Of a stretch of 64,000 nt of DNA, positions 7,544 through 64,000 are shown piece by piece. The stretch's first letter is position 1. The number at the start of each line of letters is the position of its first letter. The position numbers and the translations under genes are program-made. Under the pieces are notes generated by a model. The model worked only from the letters and a program-made list of their open reading frames with translations, had not been told where the DNA came from and searched no databases. Source of the stretch: a virus; the IMG/VR virus record IMGVR_UViG_3300035438_001811, positions 5,633 to 69,632 of that record; one strand, written 5' to 3'.

Positions 7544-7645
7544 ACTGTACCTTTACCAAGTATCGCGTTACATTCACAGCATTCATAATCTTTGCGCCCT
7601 TTAACCATCCGCATGGTTTTGCATCTGCAAGCGCCTTTTAGCGGT
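7544..7645. repeat. ~100-bp near-identical copy of 11537-11638 (5' part of ORF 11248-11649)
   Basis: AAGTATCGCGTTACATTCACAGCATTCATAATCTTTGCGCCCTTT occurs at both loci. Confidence 0.9.
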
Positions 7646-7711
7646 GTGGAGAAGTGGCATCTCGTGGGTCTCATAATCCCAAGAACACTGGTTCGATTCC
7701 AGTCACCGCCA
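7640..7711 (+). tRNA. tRNA-Met(CAT) (CAU anticodon; Met or Ile2 identity not resolved)
   Basis: Cloverleaf: GCGGTG/CACCGC acceptor, loop CTCATAA, T arm ACTGG-TTCGATT-CCAGT; A1:C72 mismatch; no encoded CCA. Confidence 0.85.
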
Positions 7712-7713
7712 TA

Positions 7714-11719: not shown

Positions 11720-12286
11720 TTATAAAGAAGCTTTTAACTCCTTAAGTTCTTTCCTTAGCCTAGCGTTTTCAGCTTTAAGCCCGTTGCGCTCAGCTTTGCG
11801 ATTGCCATTACGTTCTTGTCTAATTGCAGTCTTAGCGGCTTTCTTGGCTATCAAGTGAAAAGTATTATCCTTGGTTTTCTTGTCTACCATCTTTTTTAAA
11901 TCTGAAGCATCCGCAACGATCGCAACGATTTGAGGTTTCTTGATTTCACGAATATTCAGCGCCGCCCGAACTTTGGTAATGAGTAGATCTGGATGCTTAA
12001 CCTGTGCATTGGTGAATCGCAAAACGATAAAGCCATAGCTCTCTAAATTCTTGGTGCGCTTTGCGTCTTTGGTTTTTTGGTTGCGAGATGAATGGTAACC
12101 GCCATCAATTTCAATTAGTACCTTTGTGCCAGCAATCCTAAGATCGGGATAGTAACCATATAAGCATTGGTTATGAATTACTGAAAAGCCGTGATCTTCC
12201 AGAATCTTCTTAGCTTTAAATTCTGATGAAGTTTTGGGCGGTTCCCATTTAGGATCGTATGATTCCCGTGGTTTAGTTCGTGTCAT
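11720..12286 (-). CDS. DUF559/Vsr-like PD-(D/E)xK endonuclease
   Basis: YYPDL...VLIEIDGGYH...DAKRT..LESYGFIVLRFTN. Confidence 0.85.
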   Translation of the reverse strand: MTRTKPRESYDPKWEPPKTSSEFKAKKILEDHGFSVIHNQCLYGYYPDLRIAGTKVLIEIDGGYHSSRNQKTKDAKRTKNLESYGFIVLRFTNAQVKHPDLLITKVRAALNIREIKKPQIVAIVADASDLKKMVDKKTKDNTFHLIAKKAAKTAIRQERNGNRKAERNGLKAENARLRKELKELKASL

Positions 12287-25619: not shown

Positions 25620-27296
25620 ATGACTAGCAATGAAGCCACTACTAAAAAGATAGCTGAATTTAAGTTGTCTCCCACGATTGAGCAAAGCGCACAAATTGAT
25701 ATGTGGCTTACTCAACTTAAATGGGTATGGAATGTTGGTTTAAGTCTGCTTGAGGAAGATCAGCAACGTTATTGGAGGGCAAAACAAGAATGGGCAGAGT
25801 ATAGTCCTGAAGTATGGCAATGGCGAAAATCATGCAAAATCGACGGGATTGAGTATGTAAATCCTGATAATCAATACGGGCTTTGCTGTGCTTACTATCC
25901 TGATAAATGCGACATCCGCAAACATCGGGATATTGAAGAGCCATTTAAGCACGTTAAAAATTATCGCTTTATCGCTAATATGCGATGTCCTGATTTTTTG
26001 CACCCTATCGATAGCGAATCACGGCGATCTGTTGTGGATAACCTAATTGATGCATGGACTCAGTACCGCAAGGGGAAAAAAGGCAGACCACGTTACAAAA
26101 AGAAAGCTGATAAATTAGAAAGCTTTTCTAACGGCAATGGTCGGATATACGTTAATATTTCGCCCTTGGGTAATGACAATGCATTAATTGACTATCCAAA
26201 GCTAGGGTCAATCAAATGCAAGGGATTCTACCGTCGCTATGCTGGTAATCATACAATTGTACGCATCGTCAAAAAGGCTGACGGCTATTATGTGCAATTC
26301 ACTAGCACGGTAGACGTAAAGCCCGTTAAACCAGCAAAAAAGCAAGAAGTAGGCTTAGATTTTGGTGTAGTCGCTCCTATTGCTGATAGTGATGGAAGAT
26401 TGCATAAATCAAAACGCTATGCCAAATTGCAAGCTAAGAAATTAGCTCGTATTCAGCGCTCTATCTCACGCTCAAAAGATGGCTCTAACCGTCTAAAAGC
26501 TAAACGCTCTAAACTAGCTAAAGTGCATCTTAAAATCGCTAGGCAACGCGATCGCTTTATTCATAAGCTCACATCCAAGTATGTGAGTGAATATCAAAGC
26601 ATTGCCATTGAGGATACCAAGGTTAAAAATATGGTACGCGCACCAAAGGCGAAAGCTGGTGAAAATGGCGCGTTTCTACCTAATGGCGCGGCTGCAAAAG
26701 CTGGCTTAAATAAAGCGCTTCTTGATGTGGCGATCGGCAAAACAAAAACGATGCTAGAGACTAAATCTAAAGCATCAGAAAGAATATTTGTGAAAGTACC
26801 CGCACCGCACACTTCTCAAGGTTGCTCTCAGTGTGGCTACTATTCCGAAGAGTTTCGACCATCTCAAGCTGTTTTTAAATGCTTGAATTGTGGTCATGGT
26901 GACAACGCAGATAGCAACGCCTCAACCGTTATCCGTAATGTTGCTTTTAAAGGCTTGGTTTTGAAACCATACCCCGCTTCATCGGGGGAATTTAAGGGCG
27001 TGGATCATGCAACGCATGGGAAGAAGCGCCAACCGAGTAAGACTCGCAAGAGTAAGAAAGGATCGGTAGGAGAAACATCTACCGCAATCAACCGCGAAAG
27101 CGGGGCTGTAAATAGTCTAACCACTCGCGCAAACCCTGAAAACCAATCACCACAAGACTTTGAGCTATGGCAAGATTTAAAATCACTATCTAAAGCCAAC
27201 TCTAAATTGCAATCTCGTAAGCGATCCGCGCAAATCGATCCTAATATTGGCGCTCAGCTTGGTTTTTGGGATCTGTCTGGTGAAGCTTCTGGTTAA
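25620..27296 (+). CDS. tnpB: CRISPR-associated TnpB-like RuvC nuclease (type V-U / Cas12f-like effector)
   Basis: RuvC-I VGLDFG, RuvC-II IAIEDT, Zn ribbon CSQC..CLNC, RuvC-III NADSNA; directly adjacent CRISPR array; no tnpA. Confidence 0.9.
   Translation: MTSNEATTKKIAEFKLSPTIEQSAQIDMWLTQLKWVWNVGLSLLEEDQQRYWRAKQEWAEYSPEVWQWRKSCKIDGIEYVNPDNQYGLCCAYYPDKCDIRKHRDIEEPFKHVKNYRFIANMRCPDFLHPIDSESRRSVVDNLIDAWTQYRKGKKGRPRYKKKADKLESFSNGNGRIYVNISPLGNDNALIDYPKLGSIKCKGFYRRYAGNHTIVRIVKKADGYYVQFTSTVDVKPVKPAKKQEVGLDFGVVAPIADSDGRLHKSKRYAKLQAKKLARIQRSISRSKDGSNRLKAKRSKLAKVHLKIARQRDRFIHKLTSKYVSEYQSIAIEDTKVKNMVRAPKAKAGENGAFLPNGAAAKAGLNKALLDVAIGKTKTMLETKSKASERIFVKVPAPHTSQGCSQCGYYSEEFRPSQAVFKCLNCGHGDNADSNASTVIRNVAFKGLVLKPYPASSGEFKGVDHATHGKKRQPSKTRKSKKGSVGETSTAINRESGAVNSLTTRANPENQSPQDFELWQDLKSLSKANSKLQSRKRSAQIDPNIGAQLGFWDLSGEASG
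26968..27094 (+). ncRNA. Putative omegaRNA-derived tracrRNA overlapping the effector ORF (boundaries approximate)
   Basis: IS200/605-like omegaRNA motif GGAATTTAAGGGCGTGGA..GAAGCGCC; hairpins CATGC/GCATG and CGGTAG/CTACCG; anti-repeat CAATCAACCG at 27085-27094. Confidence 0.55.
27095..27278 (+). promoter_or_regulatory. Cyanobacterial-type CRISPR leader within the ORF tail
   Basis: AGCGGGG followed by two spaced CGCGCAAA motifs (CTCGCGCAAACCCTGAAAACC; GATCCGCGCAAATCGATCC) before repeat 1. Confidence 0.55.
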
Positions 27297-27750
27297 GCGA
27301 TCGGCTGATTGGAAGCGCAAAGCGCCCGCAAAGCTTTTTAAATGGCTAACCAGTGGGTGAAGCTTCTGGTTAAGCGATCGGCTGATTGGAAGGGATATCA
27401 GAGTCAGAGAGAGAGGCATTAGTCCAAGGTGAAGCTTCTGGTTAAGCGATCGGCTGATTGGAAGTTTGATGGTATCCCGATCCCTGATGTGAATAGCAGG
27501 TGAAGCTTCTGGTTAAGCGATCGGCTGATTGGAAGAGACCGACATCGACAATATACTATTGAGAGAATTAGGTGAAGCTTCTGGTTAAGCGATCGGCTGA
27601 TTGGAAGGCAGAAAGCATCATAGAGCCATTGCCAATCATTGAGGTGAAGCTTCTGGTTAAGCGATCGGCTGATTGGAAGTGAATATTCATAAAATCCATT
27701 GGAGCTTTTAGACGGTGAAACTAGTGGTTAAGCGATCGGCTGATTGGAAG
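27279..27750 (+). CRISPR. CRISPR array: 7 repeats of 37 bp (GGTGAAGCTTCTGGTTAAGCGATCGGCTGATTGGAAG) and 6 spacers of 34-40 bp
   Basis: Repeats start at 27279, 27356, 27428, 27499, 27571, 27643 and 27714; the last is degenerate (GGTGAAACTAGTGG...). Confidence 0.98.
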
Positions 27751-27836
27751 ACCAAATGCGGCGCAAAGACAAGATGATTGATGCATTGCTAGAGGCGATC
27801 GCAAAGATGAAGTGATATCTAAACGATTGATTAAAC

Positions 27837-27886
27837 GCAACAAAAAGACCATTTTCCTGTCATCGGGAAAATGGTCTTTTTGTTGC
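27837..27886. terminator. Long inverted-repeat terminator downstream of the array
   Basis: GCAACAAAAAGACCATTTTCC / GGAAAATGGTCTTTTTGTTGC. Confidence 0.9.
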
Positions 27887-29184: not shown

Positions 29185-29982
29185 CTACACCTTCACAACT
29201 TTATAGCCAAGATTGAGATCGATCTGATGACCATCCATGATCACACCATGACCTCGCAATGCCTTGATAATGCGTTCGCAACCTTTCCAACTAAACACGG
29301 GCTTCTGATATACCGCGCCATTAGGCAATGTCACAGGCGTTAGTTTTGCAAAGCCACGTTGCACAAAATCCGCATAGGGTTGATTAGTATCCTTGCTAAG
29401 AATCTTGACATCTTGACTGCAAAGAAACTTTCTAAAATCCTTCTCTTTATATTTGGGAATTGCGAGACATTTAAACAACTCACGCACATCTAGCCAAGTC
29501 TCGGAGTCCATGACGGTATCATACACATCGGCTTTAGGTTGCAAGACTTTGATCTCTTCTTTGAGCGCTTCCTTAGCTTCTATCTCAGAAGCCAAAAGCC
29601 TCAATGCCTCAGAAAATGTTTGAGGTAGTGCGGGTTGCGATGGAACTAACTCGACTTTACCAGTCGTCATGAGTTCATCAGTCCAAATATCTACTTGTAC
29701 CGCAAACTCATCACTACACCATTGAGCAAAACGGATCGCTACTTTAGGGTGTCCCCATGTGCCTTGATTTTGTGAGTCGCCACCTTGAATGACTTGCACC
29801 AAGTCCGTTATCTTGATCTGGATAACGCTTTCAAGAGCTTTTAAATAAGACTTTGTGGACTTGAGGTTATTCCAATGACCAAACAATTTACCACTGGCTT
29901 GCGCCATATCGGTTAACGAAACATAGCGATCGCTGCGAATACGGATAGCGCGATCATTCCAATTCTTGATAAGATTAGACAT
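29185..29982 (-). CDS. KilA-N domain antirepressor with ANT-like C-terminus
   Basis: YVSLTDMA...GTWGHPKVAIRFAQWCS..FAVQV; C-terminus highly similar to ORF 175-1002. Confidence 0.9.
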   Translation of the reverse strand: MSNLIKNWNDRAIRIRSDRYVSLTDMAQASGKLFGHWNNLKSTKSYLKALESVIQIKITDLVQVIQGGDSQNQGTWGHPKVAIRFAQWCSDEFAVQVDIWTDELMTTGKVELVPSQPALPQTFSEALRLLASEIEAKEALKEEIKVLQPKADVYDTVMDSETWLDVRELFKCLAIPKYKEKDFRKFLCSQDVKILSKDTNQPYADFVQRGFAKLTPVTLPNGAVYQKPVFSWKGCERIIKALRGHGVIMDGHQIDLNLGYKVVKV

Positions 29983-35957: not shown

Positions 35958-36113
35958 TTATTTTTTCTCAACCCCTTTACCCAAAATACCCATCCCCATA
36001 ATGCTTAGTCCAAAAGCGACAGACGCATATTCAGGATAGATATTCTTTGAGATCGCTAGCTCGGATGCACCAGCGACAACACCCAAAACAGTTAGCCATT
36101 GTGTGTTATTCAT
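35958..36113 (-). CDS. Small two-TM holin-like protein (51 aa, below the ORF track cutoff)
   Basis: MNNTQWLTVLGVVAGASELA...VAFGLSIMGMGILGKGVEKK. Confidence 0.5.
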   Translation of the reverse strand: MNNTQWLTVLGVVAGASELAISKNIYPEYASVAFGLSIMGMGILGKGVEKK

Positions 36114-36191: not shown

Positions 36192-36881
36192 ATGTCAAGA
36201 TTTTATATCGCTGTAGCCCCTGCTACACAGTCGCAATCTACGCCAAATAGCGGAGCTAACTCTAATAGTAATGACGTTCCTATTGTTGGCTTAGGTGGTG
36301 CAGGTGTGGTTATTTCCCTTGTAAGTATTTTGATAGGGAAATGGATGCCTTGGGGAGAGATTGCCAAGCAGTTTGCAGAGGTAAGAACTAGCAAAGTATT
36401 GCAAGCTGAAAACCGCAAAGGACAAGAATTAGAAGCGGAAATTGATATTAATCAAGGGTTAGCCGATACGGTTTCCCAGATTGCAAAGCACAGCGCAGAT
36501 TCCTCAGAATTTGTAATCAAAGACTTATTGCATTTAGTAGGCGATGCAATCCAATCCTCAACAGCAAATGCTCACTCTACACAGGCATTATCACGGGCAA
36601 GCGAATCGCAGGTACAGGCGACGGAAGATTTAATTAAAGCCACAGCCCATAATAGCGAAGCTTTAAAAGCTTTGAAGGAAGCGATCGCCAGTATCCCGAA
36701 AGAGACAGCTTCAGTGATTGAAGTTTACGCTGCTGAATTTCGAGTGGCGTTGGACTTATTGGATGATCGCCTTGATAGGATTGAGAAAAATCAAAAGCTC
36801 TTCTCAACTCAGGTCAAAGAAGAATTTGCATCTGCTTTTTTGGAGTTGAGAAGAGCTTTAAAAGCTAAAGAGACTGGCTAG
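36192..36881 (+). CDS. Membrane-anchored coiled-coil protein
   Basis: TM segment IVGLGGAGVVISLVSILIG followed by helical repeats. Confidence 0.55.
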   Translation: MSRFYIAVAPATQSQSTPNSGANSNSNDVPIVGLGGAGVVISLVSILIGKWMPWGEIAKQFAEVRTSKVLQAENRKGQELEAEIDINQGLADTVSQIAKHSADSSEFVIKDLLHLVGDAIQSSTANAHSTQALSRASESQVQATEDLIKATAHNSEALKALKEAIASIPKETASVIEVYAAEFRVALDLLDDRLDRIEKNQKLFSTQVKEEFASAFLELRRALKAKETG

Positions 36882-37517
36882 GATCGAGCCTACAAATCTG
36901 CTCATAAATTACGCGCTTAATCAAATAAATAGCGCCGTTTCGCTTATCCTGCGGCGTTTCCTCTAACGCTTGTTGCGTCATTTTATTTTGCTGCAATTTT
37001 ATAAACTTTAGAATTACTGATAGGATTGTAAATCCCGCAGGAAACCAGAGCCGCGTCTCTCCCTTCAATCTGGACTTTGGAGTAAATGATTCGATCTCTG
37101 TCTCCATGACCTGCATGATACCTGCATGATCCGCTCTTGTTCTTTGAGCTTGGCTTGTCGCCTAGCACAAGCCTCATTTACTCCATCCAACATGGATTTA
37201 TAGCTGTCGCACTCATTCAAAGCTTGAGTGAGGCTGTTTTGCAAAGCGTCACGCTCAAAAACGGGATCAAGGATCGGCAATATAAACTCGGCTTGTTTAT
37301 ATGTTGCCCATGCAAAAAAGTCAGATTGCCAATTAAGATTTTCCTGTAAAACACCATCAATACAAAGACCGTCATCGGAATAGTGAATCAAATGGAACGT
37401 CGTGAGATCGTCACTATTAGTTAGCCATACAGCAAGCTTTTGCCCAAATCGCATTAACTTATCGGCTAGTACTGCGTCATCATTTCTTTGGAAATATTTA
37501 TCCACTATATTTATCAT
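36865..37517 (-). pseudogene. Hypothetical gene split by an 11-bp tandem duplication
   Basis: ACCTGCATGAT occurs twice at 37109-37130; removing one copy fuses ORFs 37065-37517 and 36865-37116. Confidence 0.75.
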
Positions 37518-37858
37518 CCATAATCTGTTTGTATCTGATTCGGTCTAGATCTTCCTTGTCCACCGCATAGCATCGATCTAGCCACGCGATCTTAACCTCT
37601 CTCAATCTGCGATCGCGGTATTCGATCTGCGAGTCCACAAATCTCGCATACCAGCGGAATAAGAATGCAAAGACGATTAGGGCGATCGAGATTAGGATTA
37701 AATCTGTCATAGCAGCTCCAAATAGTATCGGTCAGTCTTTTTGTCGTAGTAATAATGGCTAGTTTTTGGCGTTATTACTATGTTTTGCGGGTTTGGTATT
37801 TCCTGTAAGCGGAGATAAAGCTTTAATGCTAGTGCGGGTGTTATTGGGGTTTCTGTCG

Positions 37859-38353
37859 TCATCTTCTGCACATTGTTCTTTTTCTAAATTGCCAAGGCAT
37901 TTCCGCATACTGCGAGGGATGCCCCCATCTGCCAAGCCTATGAGCTTTTGCCCTGTTTTGAGCCTTGGTGTACTGCTCTTGTATATCAGCAGTCAAGTAT
38001 CGCGGGTCAATCACTGCATAGCCAGCTTTTAGCATTGCTAGATTGATGTTTTTAAAGTTGTGGTATACAGTGCCAATCATGTCGCGATCGTAGCTTTTAT
38101 GCTTGGATGTGGGAACGATGGCAACCCTAGAACCTGTCGGCAAAATTCTATTTAGATATTGAGTCGCTTCTTTCCCTCCAGCTTGTCTAGATTCGTTGGC
38201 ATCAATTACAGCATATCTAACTTTGAATTTCTTACCGATGAGTGGCTTCACCCATGAGGTGTCACCATCGCAATGTTTGATTATTTTGTATGGCGATCGC
38301 CAGTAGTAGAAGTAGCAATATATGAGGATTGAGATCAAGATTAGATAGATCAT
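37859..38353 (-). CDS. Membrane-anchored thermonuclease (SNase family)
   Basis: DGDT, VRYAVIDANE, YDR..G.V, INLAMLKAGYA, A.A..LG.W. Confidence 0.9.
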   Translation of the reverse strand: MIYLILISILIYCYFYYWRSPYKIIKHCDGDTSWVKPLIGKKFKVRYAVIDANESRQAGGKEATQYLNRILPTGSRVAIVPTSKHKSYDRDMIGTVYHNFKNINLAMLKAGYAVIDPRYLTADIQEQYTKAQNRAKAHRLGRWGHPSQYAEMPWQFRKRTMCRR

Positions 38354-39540
38354 TGCTTTTTAAATCTCCCTAAAACCGTTTGTGTATATTCTTTGATCGA
38401 AGGATAATCACCGTCCCCATACTTTTGAGGAGTAGGATTATCGTACAAAGTAGGATCGCCGCTATACCACATAGACGCTACTTTGCGGATTTGCTGATCC
38501 GTATTTGACGCTGTTTTTGCTGTGATTTCCAAATACTCAGTCAGCTTGCAATCAATAATTTTGACTTGCTTGTCTTTGGACTCAATAAATTCCTTTTCGG
38601 TTAGCGGTTTACCTAAACACTGAGTAGACCACTCTTTTATATTTTCAGGCATCACTTGACCATATCCAAGGGCATTACTGTGCGGATTAATAGCGCTTGG
38701 ATTGTGGTTTGATTCTTGCCCTGCGATCGCGTTGCGTAAGCGCTCTACGATTGGTTTATTATTAGTGCTAGTTTCATACCATTTACCCTGTAGAGTGCTA
38801 ATTACAAAGCCTCTAGGAGGATCTATCCATTGACCATTTTGCTTTATACCAAAATGTAAATGAGGGGCAGTACTAGCGCCCGTATTACCAGTTTTTGCGA
38901 TCATTGCACCGATAGGATGGCGACCTGAATAGCAAGCCTCCAAGTGGAATAGGGCTATTTCGTATTCTGGCAATAATGGCGAAGTTACCCAAGCTGCAAT
39001 CCCTTCGGGTGGATTGCCGATATTTAAGGGGCAAGCTACATCGACGTATCCTTCGCTAAAGGCAAGATTAGGACTAGGCTTACCGATTGCATATAGGGGC
39101 GTTCCTACAGGTGTATTTAAGTCCACGCCTTTATGATCGGTAGAACATTCGGCGCATGGCTTATCACGTAATCCGAAAGCAGATGTAACTTCCCATTGCA
39201 ATACCTTTTCACCAACTTTTAAAGGGGCATTAAAGTCTTTATCAGTTGCATCGATTTTGAGATTGGTTTCGAGCGATGACTTATCAAATACTGGTAAATT
39301 TAAAGCTCTCCATCCCCATTCTGCAAAGCTGTTAAATGGCTGGATAACTACAAAAGAAAGTAAAACACCTGAAACTATAAGCCTTGCAGCGTTATTTATT
39401 TGTAGTTGTCTTTCCGCCTGTGATAAGACTTGGTGCTGATACTCTGGTAGGCATATCTCGATCAGCGATTCCATCTGTTTCTTTGGATGTGCGCTTTTTA
39501 GTGTTGGTGAGCGATTGTGGTGCTGATTGGCTAAAGTCAT
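38350..39540 (-). CDS. Cell-wall hydrolase: TM, M23 peptidase and lytic-transglycosylase-like domains
   Basis: HKGVDL..PVGTP, KTGNTGASTAPHLHF; AIAGQES...A.N..S.ALGYGQVMP. Confidence 0.9.
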   Translation of the reverse strand: MTLANQHHNRSPTLKSAHPKKQMESLIEICLPEYQHQVLSQAERQLQINNAARLIVSGVLLSFVVIQPFNSFAEWGWRALNLPVFDKSSLETNLKIDATDKDFNAPLKVGEKVLQWEVTSAFGLRDKPCAECSTDHKGVDLNTPVGTPLYAIGKPSPNLAFSEGYVDVACPLNIGNPPEGIAAWVTSPLLPEYEIALFHLEACYSGRHPIGAMIAKTGNTGASTAPHLHFGIKQNGQWIDPPRGFVISTLQGKWYETSTNNKPIVERLRNAIAGQESNHNPSAINPHSNALGYGQVMPENIKEWSTQCLGKPLTEKEFIESKDKQVKIIDCKLTEYLEITAKTASNTDQQIRKVASMWYSGDPTLYDNPTPQKYGDGDYPSIKEYTQTVLGRFKKQ

Positions 39541-39904
39541 AATCTAAAGTCTTATTAAATTTAAGGTTTAATTCTTTTCCTGATTCAGTAACCCATTTAA
39601 ACCCTGTGGCGGTTTGACAGTAAGAGTTACCTAGCAATGCGGCGATCGCATCAGGATCGGTTAGTTGTCTTAAAGTTCTAATCTGATTAAGGGTAACTGG
39701 CTTTGTCTGCGAGGGTTTTGTGAGACAGCCTTTGTCGTTACCTTTTAATATCTCTGCAAATTGTGGCGGCGTGATATTTGGGAGTGCGTTTCTAATGTCG
39801 CTGGTATCGGCTAACGTCATGTAGCCTTGCTTCGATAAGTCAGCAATGATCGCCACAACGGATAGGGATAATATTAATGTTGTGGCGATCGCTGATTTAC
39901 GCAT
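39392..39904 (-). CDS. Exported hypothetical protein
   Basis: N-terminal signal/TM segment. Confidence 0.55.
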   Translation of the reverse strand: MRKSAIATTLILSLSVVAIIADLSKQGYMTLADTSDIRNALPNITPPQFAEILKGNDKGCLTKPSQTKPVTLNQIRTLRQLTDPDAIAALLGNSYCQTATGFKWVTESGKELNLKFNKTLDYDFSQSAPQSLTNTKKRTSKETDGIADRDMPTRVSAPSLITGGKTTTNK

Positions 39905-39909
39905 GAGGT

Positions 39910-40377
39910 TTAGTTATCCACAAATACGACTTTAGCCTTGGGAACTAGATCGGGGCGGCGCTCGGCATTCTCAGTATTCGCTTTGATTTGGCGCTCTTGA
40001 ACCGCTTCTAAGGAAGTTCCAGCAAAGCCGCGAACTCCTACGACGGTATTGTTGATTAGAGCGTTAAACTCTCCGCCAGCTTCTTTTTCTGTCAAGATTT
40101 TAGGGTTATTTCTAAACGCTGCAACAGGTGTCACAAACACCAATGGACGGAATATAAACCAAACCACAATACAAAAAAGAGAGAAGCTGAAAGGATAAAA
40201 CCATAGCAGCTTAAAGCCAGATTTAAACCAAACCCAAATACCAGATCGAGTATTGCAATTGACTGCATACACAGGGCGATCGCTGGTAGTTCCTACTTCT
40301 AGTTTTCCGTCCATATCAGGATCGAGATCGCGCATGTTTGTAGCGCGATTTTCGTAACGTGTCATTTGTCCTTTCAT
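39910..40377 (-). CDS. Membrane protein
   Basis: Central aromatic TM segment. Confidence 0.6.
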   Translation of the reverse strand: MKGQMTRYENRATNMRDLDPDMDGKLEVGTTSDRPVYAVNCNTRSGIWVWFKSGFKLLWFYPFSFSLFCIVVWFIFRPLVFVTPVAAFRNNPKILTEKEAGGEFNALINNTVVGVRGFAGTSLEAVQERQIKANTENAERRPDLVPKAKVVFVDN

Positions 40378-41537
40378 TATGCAGATCTCCTTAATGGGAT
40401 AACGTTGTCTAGGATTGGCTCATCAATTGGAGCCTGATTAGGTTTAGTGATTTGCGGAATAATTTCAAGTCTTGCGCCTTTACCGTGTTCTTGAACTAAA
40501 GCAAAGCGACAGCCTGATTTATAAAGTTGATCGGCTTCTGCGTGAAGCTCTGCACGATCGCTAAACGGATAATGCTTCTCATTGCTAAGTACCTTTAAAG
40601 CAGCTTTACCAACAGAAACCCGAACGAGTTGATCGAAGTCTGTAGGAGATAAGCCGACTTCACCAGATACAGGCGATTGACCTAATAGAATCACATAGCA
40701 TCGAAGCTCAGCGCCAACCTTAATCAGCTTGCGAAGCAATGAAAGAGCTTTATTTTTATACTCCTCATAAATCCAATCCCACTCATCAATAATGAAAAAG
40801 ATTGGGGATGCTTCACTTGGTACAAAATTGGGGTCTTGCTGCCTTGAAATCATTTCTTTGCAGAATAATTCAAGCGCTTGCAAGGCTTTATCAATGGATG
40901 AGCAGAAAGGGATGATCGACCAGCTTGGTTGTGCTACTAAGTACTTAGGATCTATCAAAAGATACTCAGCATCGGTAACACCTAACGAATCAATAATTTG
41001 ACCCATTACATACTCAGCTAAAGTCGTTTTACCCGATTGCGTAACTCCATCAAACTTATAATGTTGACGTTTTAAAATATTTGAGCTATCAACAATCATT
41101 TCGTTTATCCAATTGCCTGTTAAATCTCGCATAGGGCGATCGTCAACAGATCGAGGGGCTTTAGCTTGTGTTTGTGGATTAGCACGGTTAACAGCTACAT
41201 TTTTAATACTGTTGTTAATTACTACAGGTTGAGATTGCACTTGTTGAGGCTGTTGAAATACTGCTTGCTGTGCAGGCATCTCTATCAAAGGCTTATCGCT
41301 AAGTTCTTTGACCATGAATCCAAACGATACAAGCGCTGCAAGCCCTGTCACTCCCATCAAAGCAGGATTGTTATAGCTGCGAGAGTTAAGCTCTAGCGCC
41401 TGTTTGTTGATTGCATACTGTTCTAAAACCTGACCTAATTCAGCACGGTTTTGCACTACATAAGGCATAGGATTAGCCAGAATCGCAGTAGCAATGCAGC
41501 TAGAAAAGAAGCTCAGACCATAAGCTAGGGCTTTCAT
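40377..41537 (-). CDS. Membrane-anchored FtsK/HerA-superfamily P-loop ATPase (coupling protein/translocase-like)
   Basis: Walker A GVTQSGKT, IDPK, Walker B FIIDEW, ILLGQSP; two N-terminal hydrophobic segments. Confidence 0.85.
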   Translation of the reverse strand: MKALAYGLSFFSSCIATAILANPMPYVVQNRAELGQVLEQYAINKQALELNSRSYNNPALMGVTGLAALVSFGFMVKELSDKPLIEMPAQQAVFQQPQQVQSQPVVINNSIKNVAVNRANPQTQAKAPRSVDDRPMRDLTGNWINEMIVDSSNILKRQHYKFDGVTQSGKTTLAEYVMGQIIDSLGVTDAEYLLIDPKYLVAQPSWSIIPFCSSIDKALQALELFCKEMISRQQDPNFVPSEASPIFFIIDEWDWIYEEYKNKALSLLRKLIKVGAELRCYVILLGQSPVSGEVGLSPTDFDQLVRVSVGKAALKVLSNEKHYPFSDRAELHAEADQLYKSGCRFALVQEHGKGARLEIIPQITKPNQAPIDEPILDNVIPLRRSA

Positions 41538-42244
41538 TTGGCTTTACCTCCGTACATTTCAGAGGCGATCGCATTGTCGCTTTGCTGTAAAATACTCACT
41601 CGCAATTCCATCTCTTTAATAATCGCGGCGCTCGTAACATTTGGAGTAAATGGCACTGGTTGAGAGCCATCTAAGGCTATACGAGCTGCCTTAATCTCAA
41701 ATAAAGCATGATTAGCTTTAGTCCAATCACGGGAAAGCGCCGCCATTTCATACCGCTTTTGCTGTTCTGGGATAAACACAGAAATAAAACAAGCTTGCTG
41801 ATATGGGGATCTAAAGCAAGCGCTATTTTTGTCAGCAATTTGGCGATTAGCTTCGATCAAAATTGCTTGGCTGCGCTCGTTTAGCATTGCCTGAGTAACT
41901 TCATCTATCTTTAGATCGGTTGCGATCTTGATATCCGAGAGACTGGCTTTGCTGTTTTCCAAGATAACTTGATTAACTTGCTGTGAGCTTGGCGCTACGT
42001 TTTGCAATGGCGCGATTTTGATCGGTGCATCGGTATTAATAGCAGTGCTACGCATAGCTAATGCACCGATGACCAACAAGGCGATCGCGCCCAATCCACC
42101 AAAAATAACGCGAGGATTTACCAACTGATACTGATTACCTTGCCCTTGGTATTGGTAAGGATTGACAGCAACAAGAGGAGCCTCAGTATTTGATTGTGCT
42201 GTGAATTGTTGCTGTTGAATCGTATCAGTGTGGTAATAGTCCAT
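41534..42244 (-). CDS. Single-TM protein
   Basis: VIFGGLGAIALLVIGALAM. Confidence 0.6.
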   Translation of the reverse strand: MDYYHTDTIQQQQFTAQSNTEAPLVAVNPYQYQGQGNQYQLVNPRVIFGGLGAIALLVIGALAMRSTAINTDAPIKIAPLQNVAPSSQQVNQVILENSKASLSDIKIATDLKIDEVTQAMLNERSQAILIEANRQIADKNSACFRSPYQQACFISVFIPEQQKRYEMAALSRDWTKANHALFEIKAARIALDGSQPVPFTPNVTSAAIIKEMELRVSILQQSDNAIASEMYGGKAK

Positions 42245-42598
42245 GGTGTTTACGCCGCCTTGAGTGCTAGCTGTGCTGATTGGGGTAATTGGTTCATCGT
42301 CAAATCGAAAGCCAGCGTTTCTGGCTCGAAGGAACCGAAAAAATCTTCTAACCCTGCGTTAGCATCTGCCAAAATATCGGGCATTGATTGCACTGTTTCC
42401 AGCATGATTTTTTGTGATGCGGTCTTTTTGATTGCTGCCATCATCGGGTTAGAAACAGAGGTAGACAAAGCGCCGATCTGATCTGACGTTTGCTGCTTTA
42501 GTTCATCAGCAGTTAGAGCGACACTTTGTTTGTTGCTTGGCTTGCGAGTCTTTTTAGGCTCGGTTGATTGCCCTTGCTTCATCGCTTCTTTTTCTTGC

Positions 42599-42868
42599 TC
42601 AGTCATTAGATAATTTCTCCATAATATTTGTGTAATTTCTTTTCCCTGCTGAAGCTGTAAAACCTCTAGCTCTTAATGCTTTACCAGCAGCATAAGCGGC
42701 TACTAGTCTTGCTTTTGATTCGGTAAACGGGGCTTTAATACCATGCTGATAAGCACGGTTTTTAAAAGTGCCAAAGGGAATCCCGAAATAATCCGCCCAA
42801 CACCTTAAAGACTGCTCTATTTCAATTGTTTTACCTCCTTTTAAGTAAGTGTCTGATGGGATGTCCAT
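42599..42868 (-). CDS. Putative HTH DNA-binding protein, first gene of the membrane operon
   Basis: SLRCWADYFGIPFGTFKNR. Confidence 0.5.
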   Translation of the reverse strand: MDIPSDTYLKGGKTIEIEQSLRCWADYFGIPFGTFKNRAYQHGIKAPFTESKARLVAAYAAGKALRARGFTASAGKRNYTNIMEKLSND

Positions 42869-42895
42869 TGGATGTCTGATGAGACATTAACAAAA

Positions 42896-42913
42896 TACTA
42901 CAGTGCTGTAGTA
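42896..42913. promoter_or_regulatory. Palindromic operator TACTACAG-TG-CTGTAGTA overlapping a TTGACA-N18-TAGTAT promoter (-)
   Basis: Perfect 8-bp inverted repeat between divergent genes. Confidence 0.7.
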
Positions 42914-42957
42914 AATACTGTCAAGTGTTAATATTAAATTTGTTTCTGAGGAACTAT

Positions 42958-43170
42958 ATGAGTGTGCCGCGATCGTTTAGATTTGATGACGATGTTTATT
43001 TAGCATTGTCTTTTAGCCTTATAGAAAAAAAGAAGGCTGGAGAAAAAATAGATTTTACTCAGCTAGTAAACGAAATCATTAGATCGGCTATGCCCATTAG
43101 TCTGTGGGATGATTTAGCCAAAAGGGTTGAAAACCTAGAAGAAAAAGTACTCAAATTAGAAGAGAAATAA
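42958..43170 (+). CDS. Ribbon-helix-helix-like regulator
   Basis: PRSFRFDDDVY..L......FTQLVNEIIR. Confidence 0.55.
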   Translation: MSVPRSFRFDDDVYLALSFSLIEKKKAGEKIDFTQLVNEIIRSAMPISLWDDLAKRVENLEEKVLKLEEK

Positions 43171-43415: not shown

Positions 43416-43916
43416 TTATTTCTGCTTAAACGGTCTACCACGTTTTACAGTACCGTCACCGCTTCGGCTTTTCTTACAATGCTTGCAAATCCATTGCTGG
43501 ATGCCTTTGCGTTTGCCGTTGCGTAGCCAATGATGATCGCACTCAGTAAACTCAAAGAACTCAATCTTAAAATTAAGCTTTTGACTGTAAGGCGCGATTA
43601 CACGATCATCATCACACTTAAATAGATCGTTACTTGCCGATGGCGCTATCCCATCGCGGTAACTAACCGTTATATGCGGGTTAGTCTTATGAGGGATATT
43701 GTCAGGCATCAGTACAGCGATCGCTTGGATATCTTTGTTCCAGAGATTTGCGATCGCTGTTGCTTCAAACTCAGTATTGATCAGGTGCTGATACTGAGTT
43801 TTGTCCACATCATAAAACAGGGTTATATGGTGTGGAGTGCCGTTCGGGAATATTGGCAGTACTGCGATCGGCTGTTGCAGTACTGCCCAGAGGATCCCGC
43901 GCATTACCAGCGCCAT
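43416..43916 (-). CDS. 2H phosphoesterase fused to Zn ribbon and AT-hook
   Basis: Two HxT motifs (HHITL, PHITV); C-terminal RNGK..G.QQW.CKHC and KRGRP. Confidence 0.7.
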   Translation of the reverse strand: MALVMRGILWAVLQQPIAVLPIFPNGTPHHITLFYDVDKTQYQHLINTEFEATAIANLWNKDIQAIAVLMPDNIPHKTNPHITVSYRDGIAPSASNDLFKCDDDRVIAPYSQKLNFKIEFFEFTECDHHWLRNGKRKGIQQWICKHCKKSRSGDGTVKRGRPFKQK

Positions 43917-46291: not shown

Positions 46292-47131
46292 TTAAGCCCT
46301 CTTCATCGGTACAATTTTAGATGAGTCAAAGTTGAATCTATACTGTTTATTCTTGGGAATAACTTGATGCTCTCTCAAGATATCGAGAATGCGATCTAAA
46401 CCCTTCCAAGAAAACACGGGAGAAAATCGCATCACACCGTCAAAGCATTGACCATCACGAAGCTTTGCTAGTCCCTCATTAACCCAAGGCGCGTAAGGGC
46501 AATTAGTGCCATCATTAGGACGCTTAAACAATACTTTCTCTTGACGCAAAATGTCATAGAGCTTACGCACTGAAAACTTAGGAATTGCAAGCTGTTTAAC
46601 AATTTGCTCACCTGTTAGCCATCCATCGGAGTCCATCACAAGATCGTAACGTTCGGCTTTTGGTTCCAAGATTTCTACTTCAGTTTGTAGGACTTGATTA
46701 GCACCTAGAAGAAGTTGGTTCTCTTTTTCTTTCTCTGCAAGTTTCTCTTCCAAATCAGCAGCAAGACGTAAAGCCTCTGCTCTTGTTTGTGGAATTGCGA
46801 ATTGTTTGATAACTTCCTTGGCTTTAGAGAAAGACTCAACAAGATCTAGTTTGCAATCAATTACAGTTTCAGTATTTTTACTGAATGTCATAATCGTACT
46901 TGCTTGATCTTCAGTTAGGTATGCATGAGATACTTCTTCGCGAGTGCCGCCTTTAGGCATTTGGACGTTAGAGATTTCAAATCTTATACATCCAAACCTT
47001 TGCTCTACCTTGGTTTGATATTTGCGAATCGTTTTAATAAAACTCTTGTGATCAATATCAAGACGATCAGCAATCAAACGAGAATCTACAACAAAAACTC
47101 CATCAACTTCTATTACAGTCAGCTTACTCAT
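46292..47131 (-). CDS. Rha-family regulator with ANT/KilAC-like C-terminus
   Basis: VVDSRLIA..L...HK....IRKY, YLTEDQA...MTF..NT.....K..LV..F; IPQT..EALRLAADL. Confidence 0.85.
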   Translation of the reverse strand: MSKLTVIEVDGVFVVDSRLIADRLDIDHKSFIKTIRKYQTKVEQRFGCIRFEISNVQMPKGGTREEVSHAYLTEDQASTIMTFSKNTETVIDCKLDLVESFSKAKEVIKQFAIPQTRAEALRLAADLEEKLAEKEKENQLLLGANQVLQTEVEILEPKAERYDLVMDSDGWLTGEQIVKQLAIPKFSVRKLYDILRQEKVLFKRPNDGTNCPYAPWVNEGLAKLRDGQCFDGVMRFSPVFSWKGLDRILDILREHQVIPKNKQYRFNFDSSKIVPMKRA

Positions 47132-57082: not shown

Positions 57083-57919
57083 ATGACAACGCAAACAAAG
57101 ATTAAACCATTGCAACCGTTCTTGAAGTGGTGTGGCGGCAAGCGTGAATTAGCTGCTTTGCTAGCAGAAATGTACGAGCCATTCCGTAGTACTCACACAT
57201 GGGTAGAGCCATTTTGTGGAGCATTGGGCGCTACGCTTGGGGTAATGCCTGAATATGCTTTACTGAATGATGTTAATCCGTATTTAATTAACTTGTATCG
57301 ACAAGTTAAAGGTAATTTCAATGGATTTGGAATCGATACAAATCTGCAATATGCCACATCCGAAAGCAGCTATTACAAATTAAGAGAACGATTTAATAAT
57401 TTGCGATCGATGACTCTTTACGCAGAAGTTCAGGCAGAGCTAGCCGAATTATTTTATTATCTCAACCGTGTAGGCTATCGGGGACTGTGCCGAACAAATA
57501 GCAGTGGTGGATTTAATGTACCTTTTGGGCATTACAAAAAGCCGATTCTTGATCATGATTTTACTGAGTACCAGAAAGCTTTTGGAACGTGGCAATTTTC
57601 AAGTTTTAGCTATACCGATTTTATCAAGGGCTTTCTTGAAGAGCTAATACCATATTGTTTCTTTTACGCCGATCCCCCCTACGATGACGGGTTTGTAGAT
57701 TATTCAGGCTCATTTACATGGGACGATCAAGTGGATTTAGCTAGCTCCTTAGCCGCGCTAAATTGCCCTGTAGTAGCAAGTAACAAGGCGACTGACAGGA
57801 TTATTGATTTGTATCAAGGTTTAGGCTTTGATGTGCAATTTATTGATATGCGCCGCCGTATTAGCTGCAATGGAGATCGCACTGATGCAAAAGAGATTTT
57901 AGCTACGAGGAATATATGA
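57083..57919 (+). CDS. dam: DNA adenine methyltransferase, Dam (D12) family
   Basis: PFLKWCGGK, EPFCG, LNDVN, YLNR.GY.GL.R.N..G.FNVPFG, DPPY. Confidence 0.95.
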   Translation: MTTQTKIKPLQPFLKWCGGKRELAALLAEMYEPFRSTHTWVEPFCGALGATLGVMPEYALLNDVNPYLINLYRQVKGNFNGFGIDTNLQYATSESSYYKLRERFNNLRSMTLYAEVQAELAELFYYLNRVGYRGLCRTNSSGGFNVPFGHYKKPILDHDFTEYQKAFGTWQFSSFSYTDFIKGFLEELIPYCFFYADPPYDDGFVDYSGSFTWDDQVDLASSLAALNCPVVASNKATDRIIDLYQGLGFDVQFIDMRRRISCNGDRTDAKEILATRNI

Positions 57920-58797
57920 AAACTCCCTGTTCTTATTATGGGGGCAAAAGTCGTATTGCCACCCAGATCGTCCCTCACATCATAGCGATACCTCACACCG
58001 TTTACGTTGAGCCTTTCTTTGGTGGCGGCGCTGTGTTATATGCCAAAGGCAAAATAGATCGCGGTAATAGTAACTATTACCGCGAAGCAATCAATGATCT
58101 AAATAAGCAATTAATCACGTTTTGGCGCGTGGCAAGAGAGCAGCCTGAAGAACTAGCGCGATGGATTGAACTTACGCCATACAGCCAAGAAGAGTATCGT
58201 GAGGCGCGAAAAATCTATAACAATCCATCTGAGTACAGCGATCTAAAAGTTGCTTGGGCTACTTATATTCAATGCAATATGAGTTTCAGTAGAAAGATTG
58301 AGGCGGGGTGGGCGGCAAGTGTAATCGGTAGAAATGAATCAGCAACATGGGTAAACCGCACTGCTAGGTTGCCAGAATGTTTTGAACGATTAAAAGATGT
58401 GCATATAGGCTGTGAAGATGCTCTTGACTTTATTAAGCGTTTCGACAGCAGCCACTCGCTTATCTATGCAGATCCTCCATATCCTGATACTGATCAAGGG
58501 CATTATGGCGGATATACCCTAGACGATTATCAAGCTCTATGCGATGTTCTTGACGCTTGCGAGTCTAGCTATGTACTGAGTAACTACCATCAAGATATCA
58601 CGCCCAAATCAGCGCAAAAGTGCGTAGGGATAGAAGCAGTCATGACTGCCGCAAACGGGCGTACATCGCGCAAAAATGCTGATGACTGCAAACGGATTGA
58701 GAAACTATGGATATGCGATCGCTCTAAAAATATCAGAGCAGACTTACAGGCGATCGCTAAGATGCCATCAAAACAAATTCAGTTAAGCTTTATTTAG
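57916..58797 (+). CDS. Second D12-class N6-adenine methyltransferase
   Basis: YYGGKS, YVEPFFGGG, EAINDL, YADPPY. Confidence 0.9.
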   Translation: MKTPCSYYGGKSRIATQIVPHIIAIPHTVYVEPFFGGGAVLYAKGKIDRGNSNYYREAINDLNKQLITFWRVAREQPEELARWIELTPYSQEEYREARKIYNNPSEYSDLKVAWATYIQCNMSFSRKIEAGWAASVIGRNESATWVNRTARLPECFERLKDVHIGCEDALDFIKRFDSSHSLIYADPPYPDTDQGHYGGYTLDDYQALCDVLDACESSYVLSNYHQDITPKSAQKCVGIEAVMTAANGRTSRKNADDCKRIEKLWICDRSKNIRADLQAIAKMPSKQIQLSFI

Positions 58798-63077: not shown

Positions 63078-63788
63078 TTAAACTTTTGCCAGTTTCCCGT
63101 ACTTATCTTGCAGATATTTATTGAGATATCGCTCTTCATAAATACCTTCAAGCCAATCAGAGAAAATACCAAGCTCACTGCTTGGATAGCAAGCGATCGT
63201 TACAGGATGAGGGCAATGTGGTAGCTGATAGTGCGCTGACTGCGTAGGCTCTGAGTAGCCAATCTCACGGCGGTATTGTGCATAGCGCCGCCCTACGCTC
63301 GAATCTAACAGATCGAACTTATCAATGGGATAACCAGCTTTTTCAACTTCCAGCAAAAGGTGATTGCATTTTTCGATGACACACCATGATCCTTTTGGCT
63401 TTACCAAATTCTTTCGGATGTCTGCACAGCGATCTGAATAATGGGCGATCGCCTTTTTAGGATTAGCGGTGGTTACTCCATACCCACCAGTTTTGCGGAT
63501 ACTTGGTAAAACGTCAGAAAACACCCATTTCTGAAAAGCTTTTGCACTTGGCAACTTAGATCCAAAAATAAGTTGATAAATGCCAGCCTCTTCTAGAACC
63601 GTTACAGACTGCACTCCGCCAGCCGTTGCCATTTTGGCAACCCCTTTGTTTTCTGTATCTACCTTCTTAGAAATAGTAGACTGAGGATCGGCATACCCTA
63701 AAACTTTCGCAACGTCATTGGCTACTGGCTTACCATCAACAAAGCGGATTTCTTGAGAATCGAAGTTAAAAACTGCTAAACTTGTCAT
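63078..63788 (-). CDS. Bro-N domain antirepressor-like protein
   Basis: VANDVAKVLGY, EAGIYQLIFGSKLPSAKAFQKWVF..VLPSIRKTGGY. Confidence 0.9.
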   Translation of the reverse strand: MTSLAVFNFDSQEIRFVDGKPVANDVAKVLGYADPQSTISKKVDTENKGVAKMATAGGVQSVTVLEEAGIYQLIFGSKLPSAKAFQKWVFSDVLPSIRKTGGYGVTTANPKKAIAHYSDRCADIRKNLVKPKGSWCVIEKCNHLLLEVEKAGYPIDKFDLLDSSVGRRYAQYRREIGYSEPTQSAHYQLPHCPHPVTIACYPSSELGIFSDWLEGIYEERYLNKYLQDKYGKLAKV

Positions 63789-63905
63789 ATTGACCTTTGG
63801 CTAAAAGATAAGGTTGATCACGCCTCGGATGTTTCAGCATCGCGGGGTATTTCTATATTATATCGCAAAACGCTTTACAATAAAGGGATTGATTGAGTTT
63901 TTACT

Positions 63906-64000
63906 TTGAATGTAATCGCAAATATAGAGGGTCTTGAAGTAGGGGCGATCGCGCCTAATAGTATCGTCAATGCCGACTGTCTGGAGGCTATGCAGCTTAT
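63906..64000 (+). CDS. 5' fragment of a probable N6/N4 DNA methyltransferase (runs off the window)
   Basis: NSIVNADCLEAMQL matches the typical N-terminal I..GDCLE.M motif. Confidence 0.5.
   Translation, partial: MNVIANIEGLEVGAIAPNSIVNADCLEAMQL

Follow-up and report, generated by a model that had tools for sequence, protein, structure and literature searches.

A conserved membrane operon with an FtsK/TcpA-type ATPase and a wall hydrolase in a complete tailed-phage genome: a possible DNA-translocating envelope complex

The stretch of DNA analysed here (the window, 64,000 nucleotides (nt) in full) corresponds to bases 5633-69632 of the 69,632-bp virus record IMGVR_UViG_3300035438_001811. It contains an operon of eleven minus-strand open reading frames (ORFs) that encodes a predicted membrane-anchored ATPase together with membrane proteins, a putative exported protein and a cell-wall hydrolase, and that lies opposite a divergent regulator candidate. 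An earlier interpretation, made from the letters alone and referred to below as the sequence-only reading, took this module for a phage-borne DNA-transfer system. The features concerned, in window positions and in operon order, are as follows.

42925-43170, plus strand: divergent regulator candidate, 81 aa from a GTG, likely start ATG at 42958
42895-42924, minus strand: sigma-70-like promoter, TTGACA-18-TAGTAT, a consensus match only (10/12)
42896-42913, no strand: candidate operator, perfect 8+2+8 palindrome TACTACAG-nn-CTGTAGTA
42599-42868, minus strand: o89, basic 89-aa protein (isoelectric point 9.7), predicted cytoplasmic; variable slot
42250-42606, minus strand: o118, acidic 118-aa protein without a transmembrane (TM) segment; variable slot
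41534-42244, minus strand: o236, predicted bitopic membrane protein
40377-41537, minus strand: ATPase, 386 aa, predicted membrane-anchored P-loop protein of the FtsK/TcpA/HerA fold
39910-40377, minus strand: o155, predicted membrane protein with a hydrophobic stretch at ~56-87
39392-39904, minus strand: o170, putatively exported or signal-anchored, with an N-terminal hydrophobic segment
38350-39540, minus strand: hydrolase, M23 plus SLT, predicted membrane-anchored, 396 aa, start uncertain
37859-38353, minus strand: SNase, Pfam SNase domain with an N-terminal hydrophobic segment; accessory
37707-37871, minus strand: o54, small protein without a Pfam match
37498-37710, minus strand: o70, N-terminal TM segment and highly charged C-terminus, without a Pfam match
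37065-37517, minus strand: o150, last gene of the operon, acidic, predicted cytoplasmic, overlapping o70 by 20 nt; outside the range of the sequence-only reading

The eleven ORFs span 42868 to 37065 and form one tightly coupled operon, with junctions of -8, +5, -4, -1, +5, -149, -4, -13, -4, and -20 nt in operon order. The ATPase is coupled on both sides, as its start overlaps the o236 stop by 4 nt and its stop overlaps the o155 start by 1 nt. The tightly packed operon of the sequence-only reading is thus present, with its ORFs where they had been placed, and is longer than had been claimed: it reaches 433 nt past the former lower limit and takes in the 150-aa ORF. At its distal end the module adjoins tail-fibre genes. 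Between these and the operon lie a 51-aa ORF (35958-36113, minus strand) with two hydrophobic stretches and a holin-like shape, and the gene of o229 (36192-36881, plus strand), a 229-aa protein with one TM segment and sequence resembling a long coiled coil; the o229 gene is kept in three related loci (L005, L006, and L011).

Nine related loci were fetched via the ATPase. In these, o236 lies upstream of the ATPase in all eight loci where this could be assessed, o155 lies downstream of it in seven of seven, o170 is present in six of six, and the hydrolase in five of five. The core of the module is therefore the series o236-ATPase-o155-o170-hydrolase, which is kept in every assessable related locus. 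The distal genes are less constant, with o54 in three of four assessable loci (L005, L006, and L011), o70 and o150 in two of four (L005 and L006), and the SNase in one of four (L011; absent from L005, L006, and L012). In L005 and L006, o54 directly follows the hydrolase, although the flanking genes are 92-100% identical to those of the window. Because it is present in only one of the four assessable loci, the SNase is accessory and dispensable across relatives. Co-conservation of the genes, on which the DNA-transfer interpretation had been made to depend, is thus found for o236, o155, o170, and the hydrolase, and fails for the SNase. At the proximal end, o89 is kept in L005, L006, and L011, and o118 in these three and in L016, while L004, L012, and L014 have unrelated pairs of ~105-aa proteins in their place.

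The ATPase has two predicted N-terminal TM helices (residues 2-21 and 58-81) separated by a short outer loop, a disordered Q-rich linker (85-136), a RecA-like core (140-360), and a tail (361-386) that is disordered save for a short conserved C-terminus. The AlphaFold model, from a 24-sequence alignment, has a mean predicted local distance difference test score (pLDDT) of 77, and the core is confidently modelled (pLDDT ~90). Of the Walker-motif residues, the 24 sequences share G164, G169, K170, and E252 without exception and T171 and W253 with few exceptions; in the type-1 alignment (A4), D251 does not vary either. Foldseek placed the core among EccC, FtsK, TcpA, and HerA, with E-values from 2.8e-7 (EccC/EssC) to 2.7e-6. 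In VIA-align the best match was TcpA, the coupling protein of pCW3 (Z 16.6, root-mean-square deviation 3.5 over 210 residues), ahead of FtsK (Z 15.4), the EssC and EccC domains (Z 14.7-12.9), HerA (Z 13.9), STIV2 B204 (Z 12.9), and VirB4/TrwK (Z 12.4); the top matches, with Z 16.6-13.9, cover ~205-213 residues.

Sequence comparisons were less sharply resolved. A family profile searched against PDB sequences matched FtsK (8e-5) and TcpA (2e-3), the top RecA rows being multi-domain fusion constructs that were disregarded, and a single-sequence search of the PDB returned only a designed repeat protein. The only Pfam match was AAA_22, below cut-off, and the PHROG match was to an 'FtsK/SpoIIIE-like' family (2.6e-6). 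With its two N-terminal TM helices and a core nearest to TcpA and FtsK, the protein is the TM-anchored FtsK/HerA-type ATPase that the sequence-only reading had described. The profile and structure searches proposed at that time (TraB, TcpA, VirD4) gave a divided outcome, as TcpA is the best fold match, and neither a TraB-like C-terminal domain nor a coupling-protein family of type IV secretion systems (T4SS) was found.

A profile search of 1.84 billion representatives returned 968 relatives at E<=1e-3, of which 208 were at E<=1e-10. The Pfam scan of relatives covered 84 sequences, namely the window ATPase and 83 of the 150 listed matches. Among these, FtsK_SpoIIIE was matched in 19 (E<=1e-3), AAA_22 in 34, DUF87 in four, Pox_A32 in three, AAA_10 in two, and T4SS coupling-protein families in none; one relative, P0070, lies above the FtsK_SpoIIIE cut-off (28.5 bits versus 24). 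Of 132 listed relatives with a length of 350 aa or more, 104 have an N-terminal hydrophobic segment. The ATPase is therefore a member of a large, unnamed, membrane-anchored branch near FtsK/SpoIIIE. Three distant relatives of the ATPase had no close relatives in viral contigs.

The most conserved regions of the ATPase are the outer loop between the TM helices and the C-terminal tail. Across 73 closer homologues there is hardly any variation in the N-terminal membrane part or in the last dozen residues (DNVIPL-x-RR-type), and the P-loop core between these constant ends occurs in two versions, of which L005 and L006 hold the other one. Since an exchange of the P-loop core leaves both the outer loop and the tail in place, this pattern suggests that they may serve as fixed contact points for partner proteins. 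The ATPase gene itself (40377-41537; homologues P0036-P0066) is a mosaic of constant ends and two exchangeable P-loop cores.

Hydropathy identifies o236, o155, and o170, and additionally o70, as candidate membrane or exported proteins, which agrees with the three that had been proposed earlier. In o236, a Q-rich N-terminus precedes a single TM segment (~46-64), and the outer domain is all-helical. Its 50 homologues are all at least 44% identical, and C143 and C152 are invariant. The AlphaFold model of o236 consists of helices only, with pLDDT >85 at residues 110-190, and Foldseek found no match for this fold in the PDB (best E 1.1). An analogy with VirB8/TcpC, which its size and topology would fit, was considered and was ruled out by the all-helical model, in which there is no NTF2-like domain. 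A complex prediction for ATPase residues 1-90 and o236 residues 40-236 scored 0.00 and gives no verdict. Atlas held nothing usable for o236 or o155, and neither o155 nor o170 has relatives detectable outside this phage group or a family match. o170 contains two cysteines, with no lipobox cysteine near its N-terminus; likewise, the translations show no lipobox cysteine after the signal segment in any protein of the operon. The resemblance of o70 to holins or spanins is in shape only. Of the remaining small proteins, o89 has no family or PDB match, o118 has no significant family match, and o150 has no family match; o89 is possibly a DNA-binding adaptor.

The hydrolase matches Peptidase_M23 (1.7e-9) and SLT (5.3e-5), both above the Pfam cut-offs, and the motifs HxxxD, HxH, and E-S are visible in its translation. 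A TM segment starts near residue 51, so that the earlier description of a TM-anchored M23 plus transglycosylase stands. In its longest form, the hydrolase ORF shares 149 nt (39392-39540) with the 3' end of o170, and distant relatives align in both frames; this points either to a genuine long overlap or to a later hydrolase start, and the TM segment lies downstream of the overlap with o170. The next gene product matches SNase in Pfam (5.4e-12). Its nuclease domain is as previously proposed, while the anchor proposed with it corresponds to a weaker N-terminal hydrophobic segment, and the protein is not part of the core. In one freshwater metatranscriptome, four short contigs, 90-99% alike, cover parts of the hydrolase, of o118/o89, and of a tail-fibre gene, and show neither timing nor certain transcription.

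Upstream of the operon, the palindrome at 42896-42913 is unique in the window even when up to two mismatches are allowed, and any match occurred in 1 of 100 shuffles. It is exact in three (L006, L011, and L014) of the six related loci that include the upstream intergenic region, and the divergent regulators of these three loci are only 40-51% identical. Because the palindrome is unique and is exact beside regulators that have diverged to this extent, there is good evidence for it as a candidate operator, and the operator proposed in the sequence-only reading is in this respect borne out. The best minus-strand promoter-like site of the region has the palindrome in its spacer, between the two hexamers; such sites are rarer in this region than in its shuffles (8 versus a mean of 15).

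The divergent gene had been called a ribbon-helix-helix (RHH) gene. It is divergent and its position is conserved, with homologues placed divergently in L004 (weak), L006, L011, and L014. The RHH fold is unconfirmed and derives from an N-terminal pattern, PR-x-IR-x-D-x-DIY (PRSIRIDDDIY-type), which is conserved in the alignment (A7) and is followed by a coiled coil. The regulator candidate has no match in Pfam, PHROG, or NCBIfam, and a profile of five homologues matched only coiled coils in the PDB.

The genome that carries the module is that of a tailed phage. PHROG and Pfam searches identified the large terminase (TerL), portal, scaffold, and HK97-type major head proteins, a tape measure protein of 1641 aa, tail-fibre-related proteins, DnaB, two D12 methyltransferases, a dCTP deaminase, and several Bro/Ant/KilAC regulators. 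The record ends in 99 nt (69534-69632; window 63902-64000) that repeat its nt 21-119, and because of this identity the assembly closes on itself at ~69.5 kb. The carrier is thus a complete tailed-phage genome of ~69.5 kb in a circular or terminally redundant assembly, despite the label of the record as linear and 90% complete. The possibility that the module is a compositional island was dropped, since the guanine-cytosine content is flat across the window at ~0.42.

The sequence-only reading had also considered a phage-plasmid lifestyle. Six-frame searches of the whole record for tyrosine integrase, resolvase, and ParB_N gave no match (ParA-type families fell outside them). The same searches gave none for Relaxase (PF03432; other relaxase families were not searched in six frames) or VirB4 (PF03135), and Pfam scans of 44 window ORFs turned up no relaxase family and no VirB4. 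Because all five are unmatched, the phage-plasmid proposal is left without support, whereas the accompanying remark that no relaxase or VirB4 is visible is confirmed for PF03432 and PF03135.

Several other features of the genome were recorded. Four Bro-N/Ant/KilAC/Rha-type regulator genes (112-1002, 29185-29982, 46292-47131, and 63078-63788) are present in this genome, in which no integrase, resolvase, or ParB could be recognised. At 25620-27886 lies a miniature type V CRISPR-Cas-like locus; it encodes a 558-aa OrfB_IS605/Cas12f-TNB protein, which over 78% of its length shares 36.5% identity with a 'c2c8 type V CRISPR-associated protein' of a Microcystis plasmid; directly after this gene is a 37-nt repeat in seven copies at 71-77 nt spacing (27279-27750), followed by a perfect 21-nt hairpin (27837-27886). 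The TnpB region had no blastn match among plasmids. ARAGORN reported a tRNA-Met, and Rfam gave a second tRNA-like match that ARAGORN did not report (7639-7712 and 2779-2876). Additionally, there are two adjacent D12-class N6-adenine methyltransferase genes and a gene for a DUF559/restriction endonuclease-like protein (57083-58797 and 11720-12286).

Within the collections searched, phages of filamentous cyanobacteria and plasmids of Nostocales are the only carriers of related ATPases. By tblastn, the ATPase matched 15 of 72,556 plasmids (14 of Nostoc and one of Halotia) and one of 50,697 phage records, Aphanizomenon phage vB_AphaS-CL131 (gp108); a search with CL131 gp108 led further to Leptolyngbya phage Lbo402-yong5, in which the gene is annotated 'DNA translocase coupling protein'. 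The three best viral fold matches are full-length and include a Nodularia phage protein and a 641-aa protein equal in length to gp108. These sister ATPases are 493-641 aa long, are 26-30% identical over 53-61%, and have N-terminal TM segments and C-terminal extensions. In the same operon, the sister ATPase is preceded by other small proteins and by one of 95-99 aa that has two or three TM segments.

No hydrolase is adjacent to the ATPase in the sister modules of CL131, Lbo402-yong5, and the 15 plasmids, and the nine plasmid records matched by the hydrolase have none in common with the ATPase's 15. The synteny on plasmids that had been suggested as a check is therefore seen for a sister ATPase with small TM proteins, and does not extend to the hydrolase. 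The flanks of the sister ATPase on pNPUN02 hold no recognisable transfer genes. The main text of the CL131 paper mentions no gp108, ATPase, endolysin, lysis, or plasmid (its supplements were outside this check), and we found no published description of the module or of the ATPase family in cyanophages. By blastn the region had no match among phage records, and the sole match in a scan of genome contigs was a weak one to Lachnospiraceae. A 166-aa protein encoded next to the module (43416-43916; L007 2062-2412) is 42% identical to CL131 gp125, and its gene is the second that is held in common with this phage.

The runs that hold this DNA are lake-water metagenomes and one freshwater metatranscriptome with a small share, and 22 of the 23 holding DNA runs are flagged as possible sources. 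The phage family carrying the module consists of freshwater tailed phages, whose predicted host is probably a cyanobacterium. The named hosts of the sister ATPases (Aphanizomenon, Leptolyngbya, Nodularia, and Nostocales) are all filamentous, in a small sample and at 26-30% identity. A terminase search gave no host clue.

Taken together, these parts comprise a motor of the FtsK/TcpA type, coupled membrane proteins with predicted periplasmic domains, a putative exported protein, a tethered hydrolase, small variable cytoplasmic proteins, and a putative repressor-operator pair of their own. By analogy with known systems, such a list would be the blueprint of a single-ATPase DNA-transfer apparatus. 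We lean slightly towards an ATPase that translocates DNA, whatever the direction or purpose. That the module as a whole is a DNA-translocating envelope complex similar to TraB/Spd or Tcp is a tentative reading, to which we give somewhat less than an even chance. The DNA-transfer interpretation thus retains part of its original basis: the anatomy of the module, the co-conserved core, and the sister ATPases in phages and plasmids of filamentous cyanobacteria are consistent with it, whereas the SNase is not co-conserved and a TraB-like recognition domain was not found.

In this proposal, the phage would encode a cell-envelope machine under repressor control. Its motor would be a ring of the inner-membrane-anchored FtsK/TcpA-type ATPase, translationally coupled to o236, with its helical domain in the periplasm, and to o155. 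o170 would be exported, and the membrane-tethered M23+SLT hydrolase would open the wall locally. The cargo would be the phage's own double-stranded DNA (dsDNA), carried across the cytoplasmic membrane and the wall without a virion, in the mode of the Streptomyces TraB/Spd or clostridial Tcp system. Its substrate could be recognised by o89, o118, and the conserved C-terminal tail of the ATPase, with the SNase as an optional add-on. The septum of a cyanobacterial filament has no outer membrane, and because of this the parts could suffice in a filament. The fullest version of the proposal is that a tailed cyanophage pumps its own dsDNA genome into neighbouring filament cells through the septal wall, in TraB/Spd-like fashion and without virions, and that the sister pump on Nostocales plasmids is an unrecognised cyanobacterial DNA-transfer system; taken whole, we consider this improbable.

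Several observations weigh against a DNA-translocating complex. The ATPase has no C-terminal DNA-recognition domain, with only ~25 disordered residues after the core, and no DNA-binding family match. The modelled fold separates DNA pumps from type VII secretion ATPases only narrowly (Z 16.6 versus 14.7). Hydropathy reveals no polytopic channel protein in the operon, and the remaining T4SS hallmarks (Relaxase-family, VirB4, and VirB8-like) appear to be lacking, as judged from the searches above. The presence of the ATPase in all nine related loci is by construction. With regard to a filamentous host, the best capsid match (52%) is to a Microcystis phage and the Cas12-like gene of the phage matches a Microcystis plasmid, and Microcystis is unicellular. 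Finally, the hydrolase is the sole recognisable peptidoglycan hydrolase in a complete genome and so may be the lysis enzyme.

This last point leads to the main rival explanation, a lysis or egress cassette. The M23+SLT protein would be a signal-anchor endolysin, o155, o70, and the 51-aa ORF would be holins, o236 and o229 would be spanin-like, and the ATPase would be separate or regulatory. In six frames of the 69.6-kb record, Peptidase_M23 (PF01551) was matched at this gene and nowhere else, and there was no match to Phage_lysozyme, Amidase_2, Amidase_3, Glyco_hydro_19, or Peptidase_M15_4; Pfam scans of the 44 window ORFs revealed no other wall hydrolase, and since the 99-nt terminal overlap closes the record, no gene is hidden in a missing part. 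Moreover, the PHROG matches of the hydrolase include endolysin families, and a position next to tail-fibre genes is common for lysis genes. An endolysin may nevertheless hide among the many ORFs without a family match. The membrane ATPase, which is translationally linked to its neighbours in the operon and occurs in every related locus, is also difficult to place here, as membrane ATPases are not known from lysis cassettes. In addition, o170 has no lipobox cysteine for an outer spanin and the operon encodes no lipoprotein spanin, the module, rather than forming part of a late operon, has a separate promoter with an operator and faces a regulator gene, and o54, o70, and o150 are missing from L012. 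A lysis cassette is thus a serious possibility that we nonetheless regard as rather unlikely. Should the hydrolase prove to be the endolysin, what would be left of the finding is an unusual lysis region and an unexplained ATPase.

A role in superinfection exclusion or conflict between elements is less likely still. Here, the ATPase and its partners would block or expel foreign DNA, which a periplasmic SNase would degrade. The SNase, a putative exported or anchored protein, comes and goes among close relatives as a conflict gene would, and the exchange of the ATPase core and of the first two genes, with the interfaces kept, is a diversification common in conflict systems. CL131 gp108 has a weak PD-(D/E)XK-like C-terminus (1.5e-4, below cut-off). 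PADLOC gave weak matches for the ATPase (mad8, 2.2e-6) and the nuclease (SNc model, 2.4e-4), but these reflect generic P-loop and nuclease similarity. The architecture is unlike that of any known defence system, the wall hydrolase would be unexplained, and no lysogeny genes were matched in the record, so that there is no sign of a lasting resident state to which exclusion would be of use.

DNA segregation in the style of FtsK/SpoIIIE, in which a septal ATPase would pump replicating phage or plasmid DNA to both daughters or to specialised cells, is doubtful. The fold is nearest to FtsK and TcpA, the family is common to phages and large plasmids of filamentous cyanobacteria, and FtsK/SpoIIIE genes of Bacillus phages have been linked, in the available text of one report, to segregation of phage genomes into spores (PMC8597652). 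However, the ATPase has no gamma-like DNA-recognition domain, an exported protein and a wall hydrolase would not be needed, and the searches for ParB_N, integrase, and resolvase matched no partition or lysogeny genes in the record. Least likely, and in our view very improbable, is a type VII-like export of o89, o118, or the hydrolase energised by the ATPase, because the high rank of EccC/EssC among the fold matches (Z 14.7-12.9; Foldseek E 2.8e-7) and the small helical proteins encoded just upstream are offset by a single ATPase core domain in place of the two to three in tandem in EssC/EccC, by the lack of a WXG100 or other type VII match (NCBIfam EccCb, 15 bits versus a cut-off of 347), and by the N-terminal hydrophobic signals that the exported proteins bear themselves.

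If the module does move DNA, it would offer a tailed phage a route for virion-independent spread and could amount to a so far undescribed DNA-transfer system in filamentous cyanobacteria, on whose plasmids a sister ATPase occurs. If its function is another one, there is still a family of 968 representatives to characterise, most of whose best-scoring members have an N-terminal hydrophobic anchor.

Among known systems, the Tcp system of Clostridium perfringens plasmid pCW3 provides the closest structural match. In TcpA, too, an FtsK-like domain comes after N-terminal TM helices, and wall hydrolases are among the products of the tcp locus. The Tcp system needs a VirB4-like ATPase, VirB6- and VirB8-like proteins, and a relaxase. 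TcpA (PDB 6o1x and related) is the best structural match of the phage ATPase, at an identity of only 14%, and a dedicated peptidoglycan hydrolase, here M23+SLT behind a TM anchor, is a further likeness to T4SS and Tcp systems; in contrast, VirB4, a PF03432 relaxase, a VirB8-like form of o236, and a polytopic protein were not found in the phage. The packaging ATPases of the STIV2 B204 and poxvirus A32 type have a similarly small core (~220 aa), and an A32-like protein is among the viral fold matches, but these ATPases are soluble and dock on a capsid vertex, whereas the phage ATPase is predicted to be membrane-anchored in a phage that packages via terminase and portal. Nearest in sequence, CL131 gp108, the Lbo402-yong5 protein, and the 513-aa proteins of Nostoc plasmids have a homologous core, an N-terminal TM part, and small TM proteins encoded upstream, and differ in a longer ATPase, other partner genes, and the lack of an adjacent hydrolase.

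The TraB/Spd system of pSVH1 likewise has one FtsK-like membrane ATPase and coupled small membrane and wall proteins, with a repressor that binds upstream repeats and, in the available text, neither a relaxase nor VirB4 (PMC4447253). There, the spd genes are described as translationally coupled and under a repressor, encoding diverse membrane and wall-binding proteins that are too diverse to be recognised by sequence, and SpdB2 homologues on actinophages are proposed to aid the spread of phage DNA (PMC4447253). As given in the same text (PMC4447253), TraB is ~770 aa long and ends in a winged-helix domain that recognises clt, where the phage ATPase has ~25 residues after its core. The phage module further differs in that no sequence similarity to Spd was found, in its enzymatic M23+SLT hydrolase, and in its carrier, a tailed phage of a diderm, probably a cyanobacterium. 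TdtA of the Thermus thermophilus element ICEth1 may be comparable, as a membrane ring ATPase on a mobile element that pushes donor DNA out; a ring is proposed for the phage ATPase. In the available text, TdtA works without a classical T4SS and is encoded together with nucleases (PMC5365140). In ICEth1, NurA-like and restriction nucleases are described as needed for transfer and a recombinase is present (PMC5365140), whereas the SNase is dispensable across relatives of the phage module and no recombinase was matched in the phage. By analogy, Streptomyces TraB/Spd and Thermus TdtA would be the closest functional models for the module.

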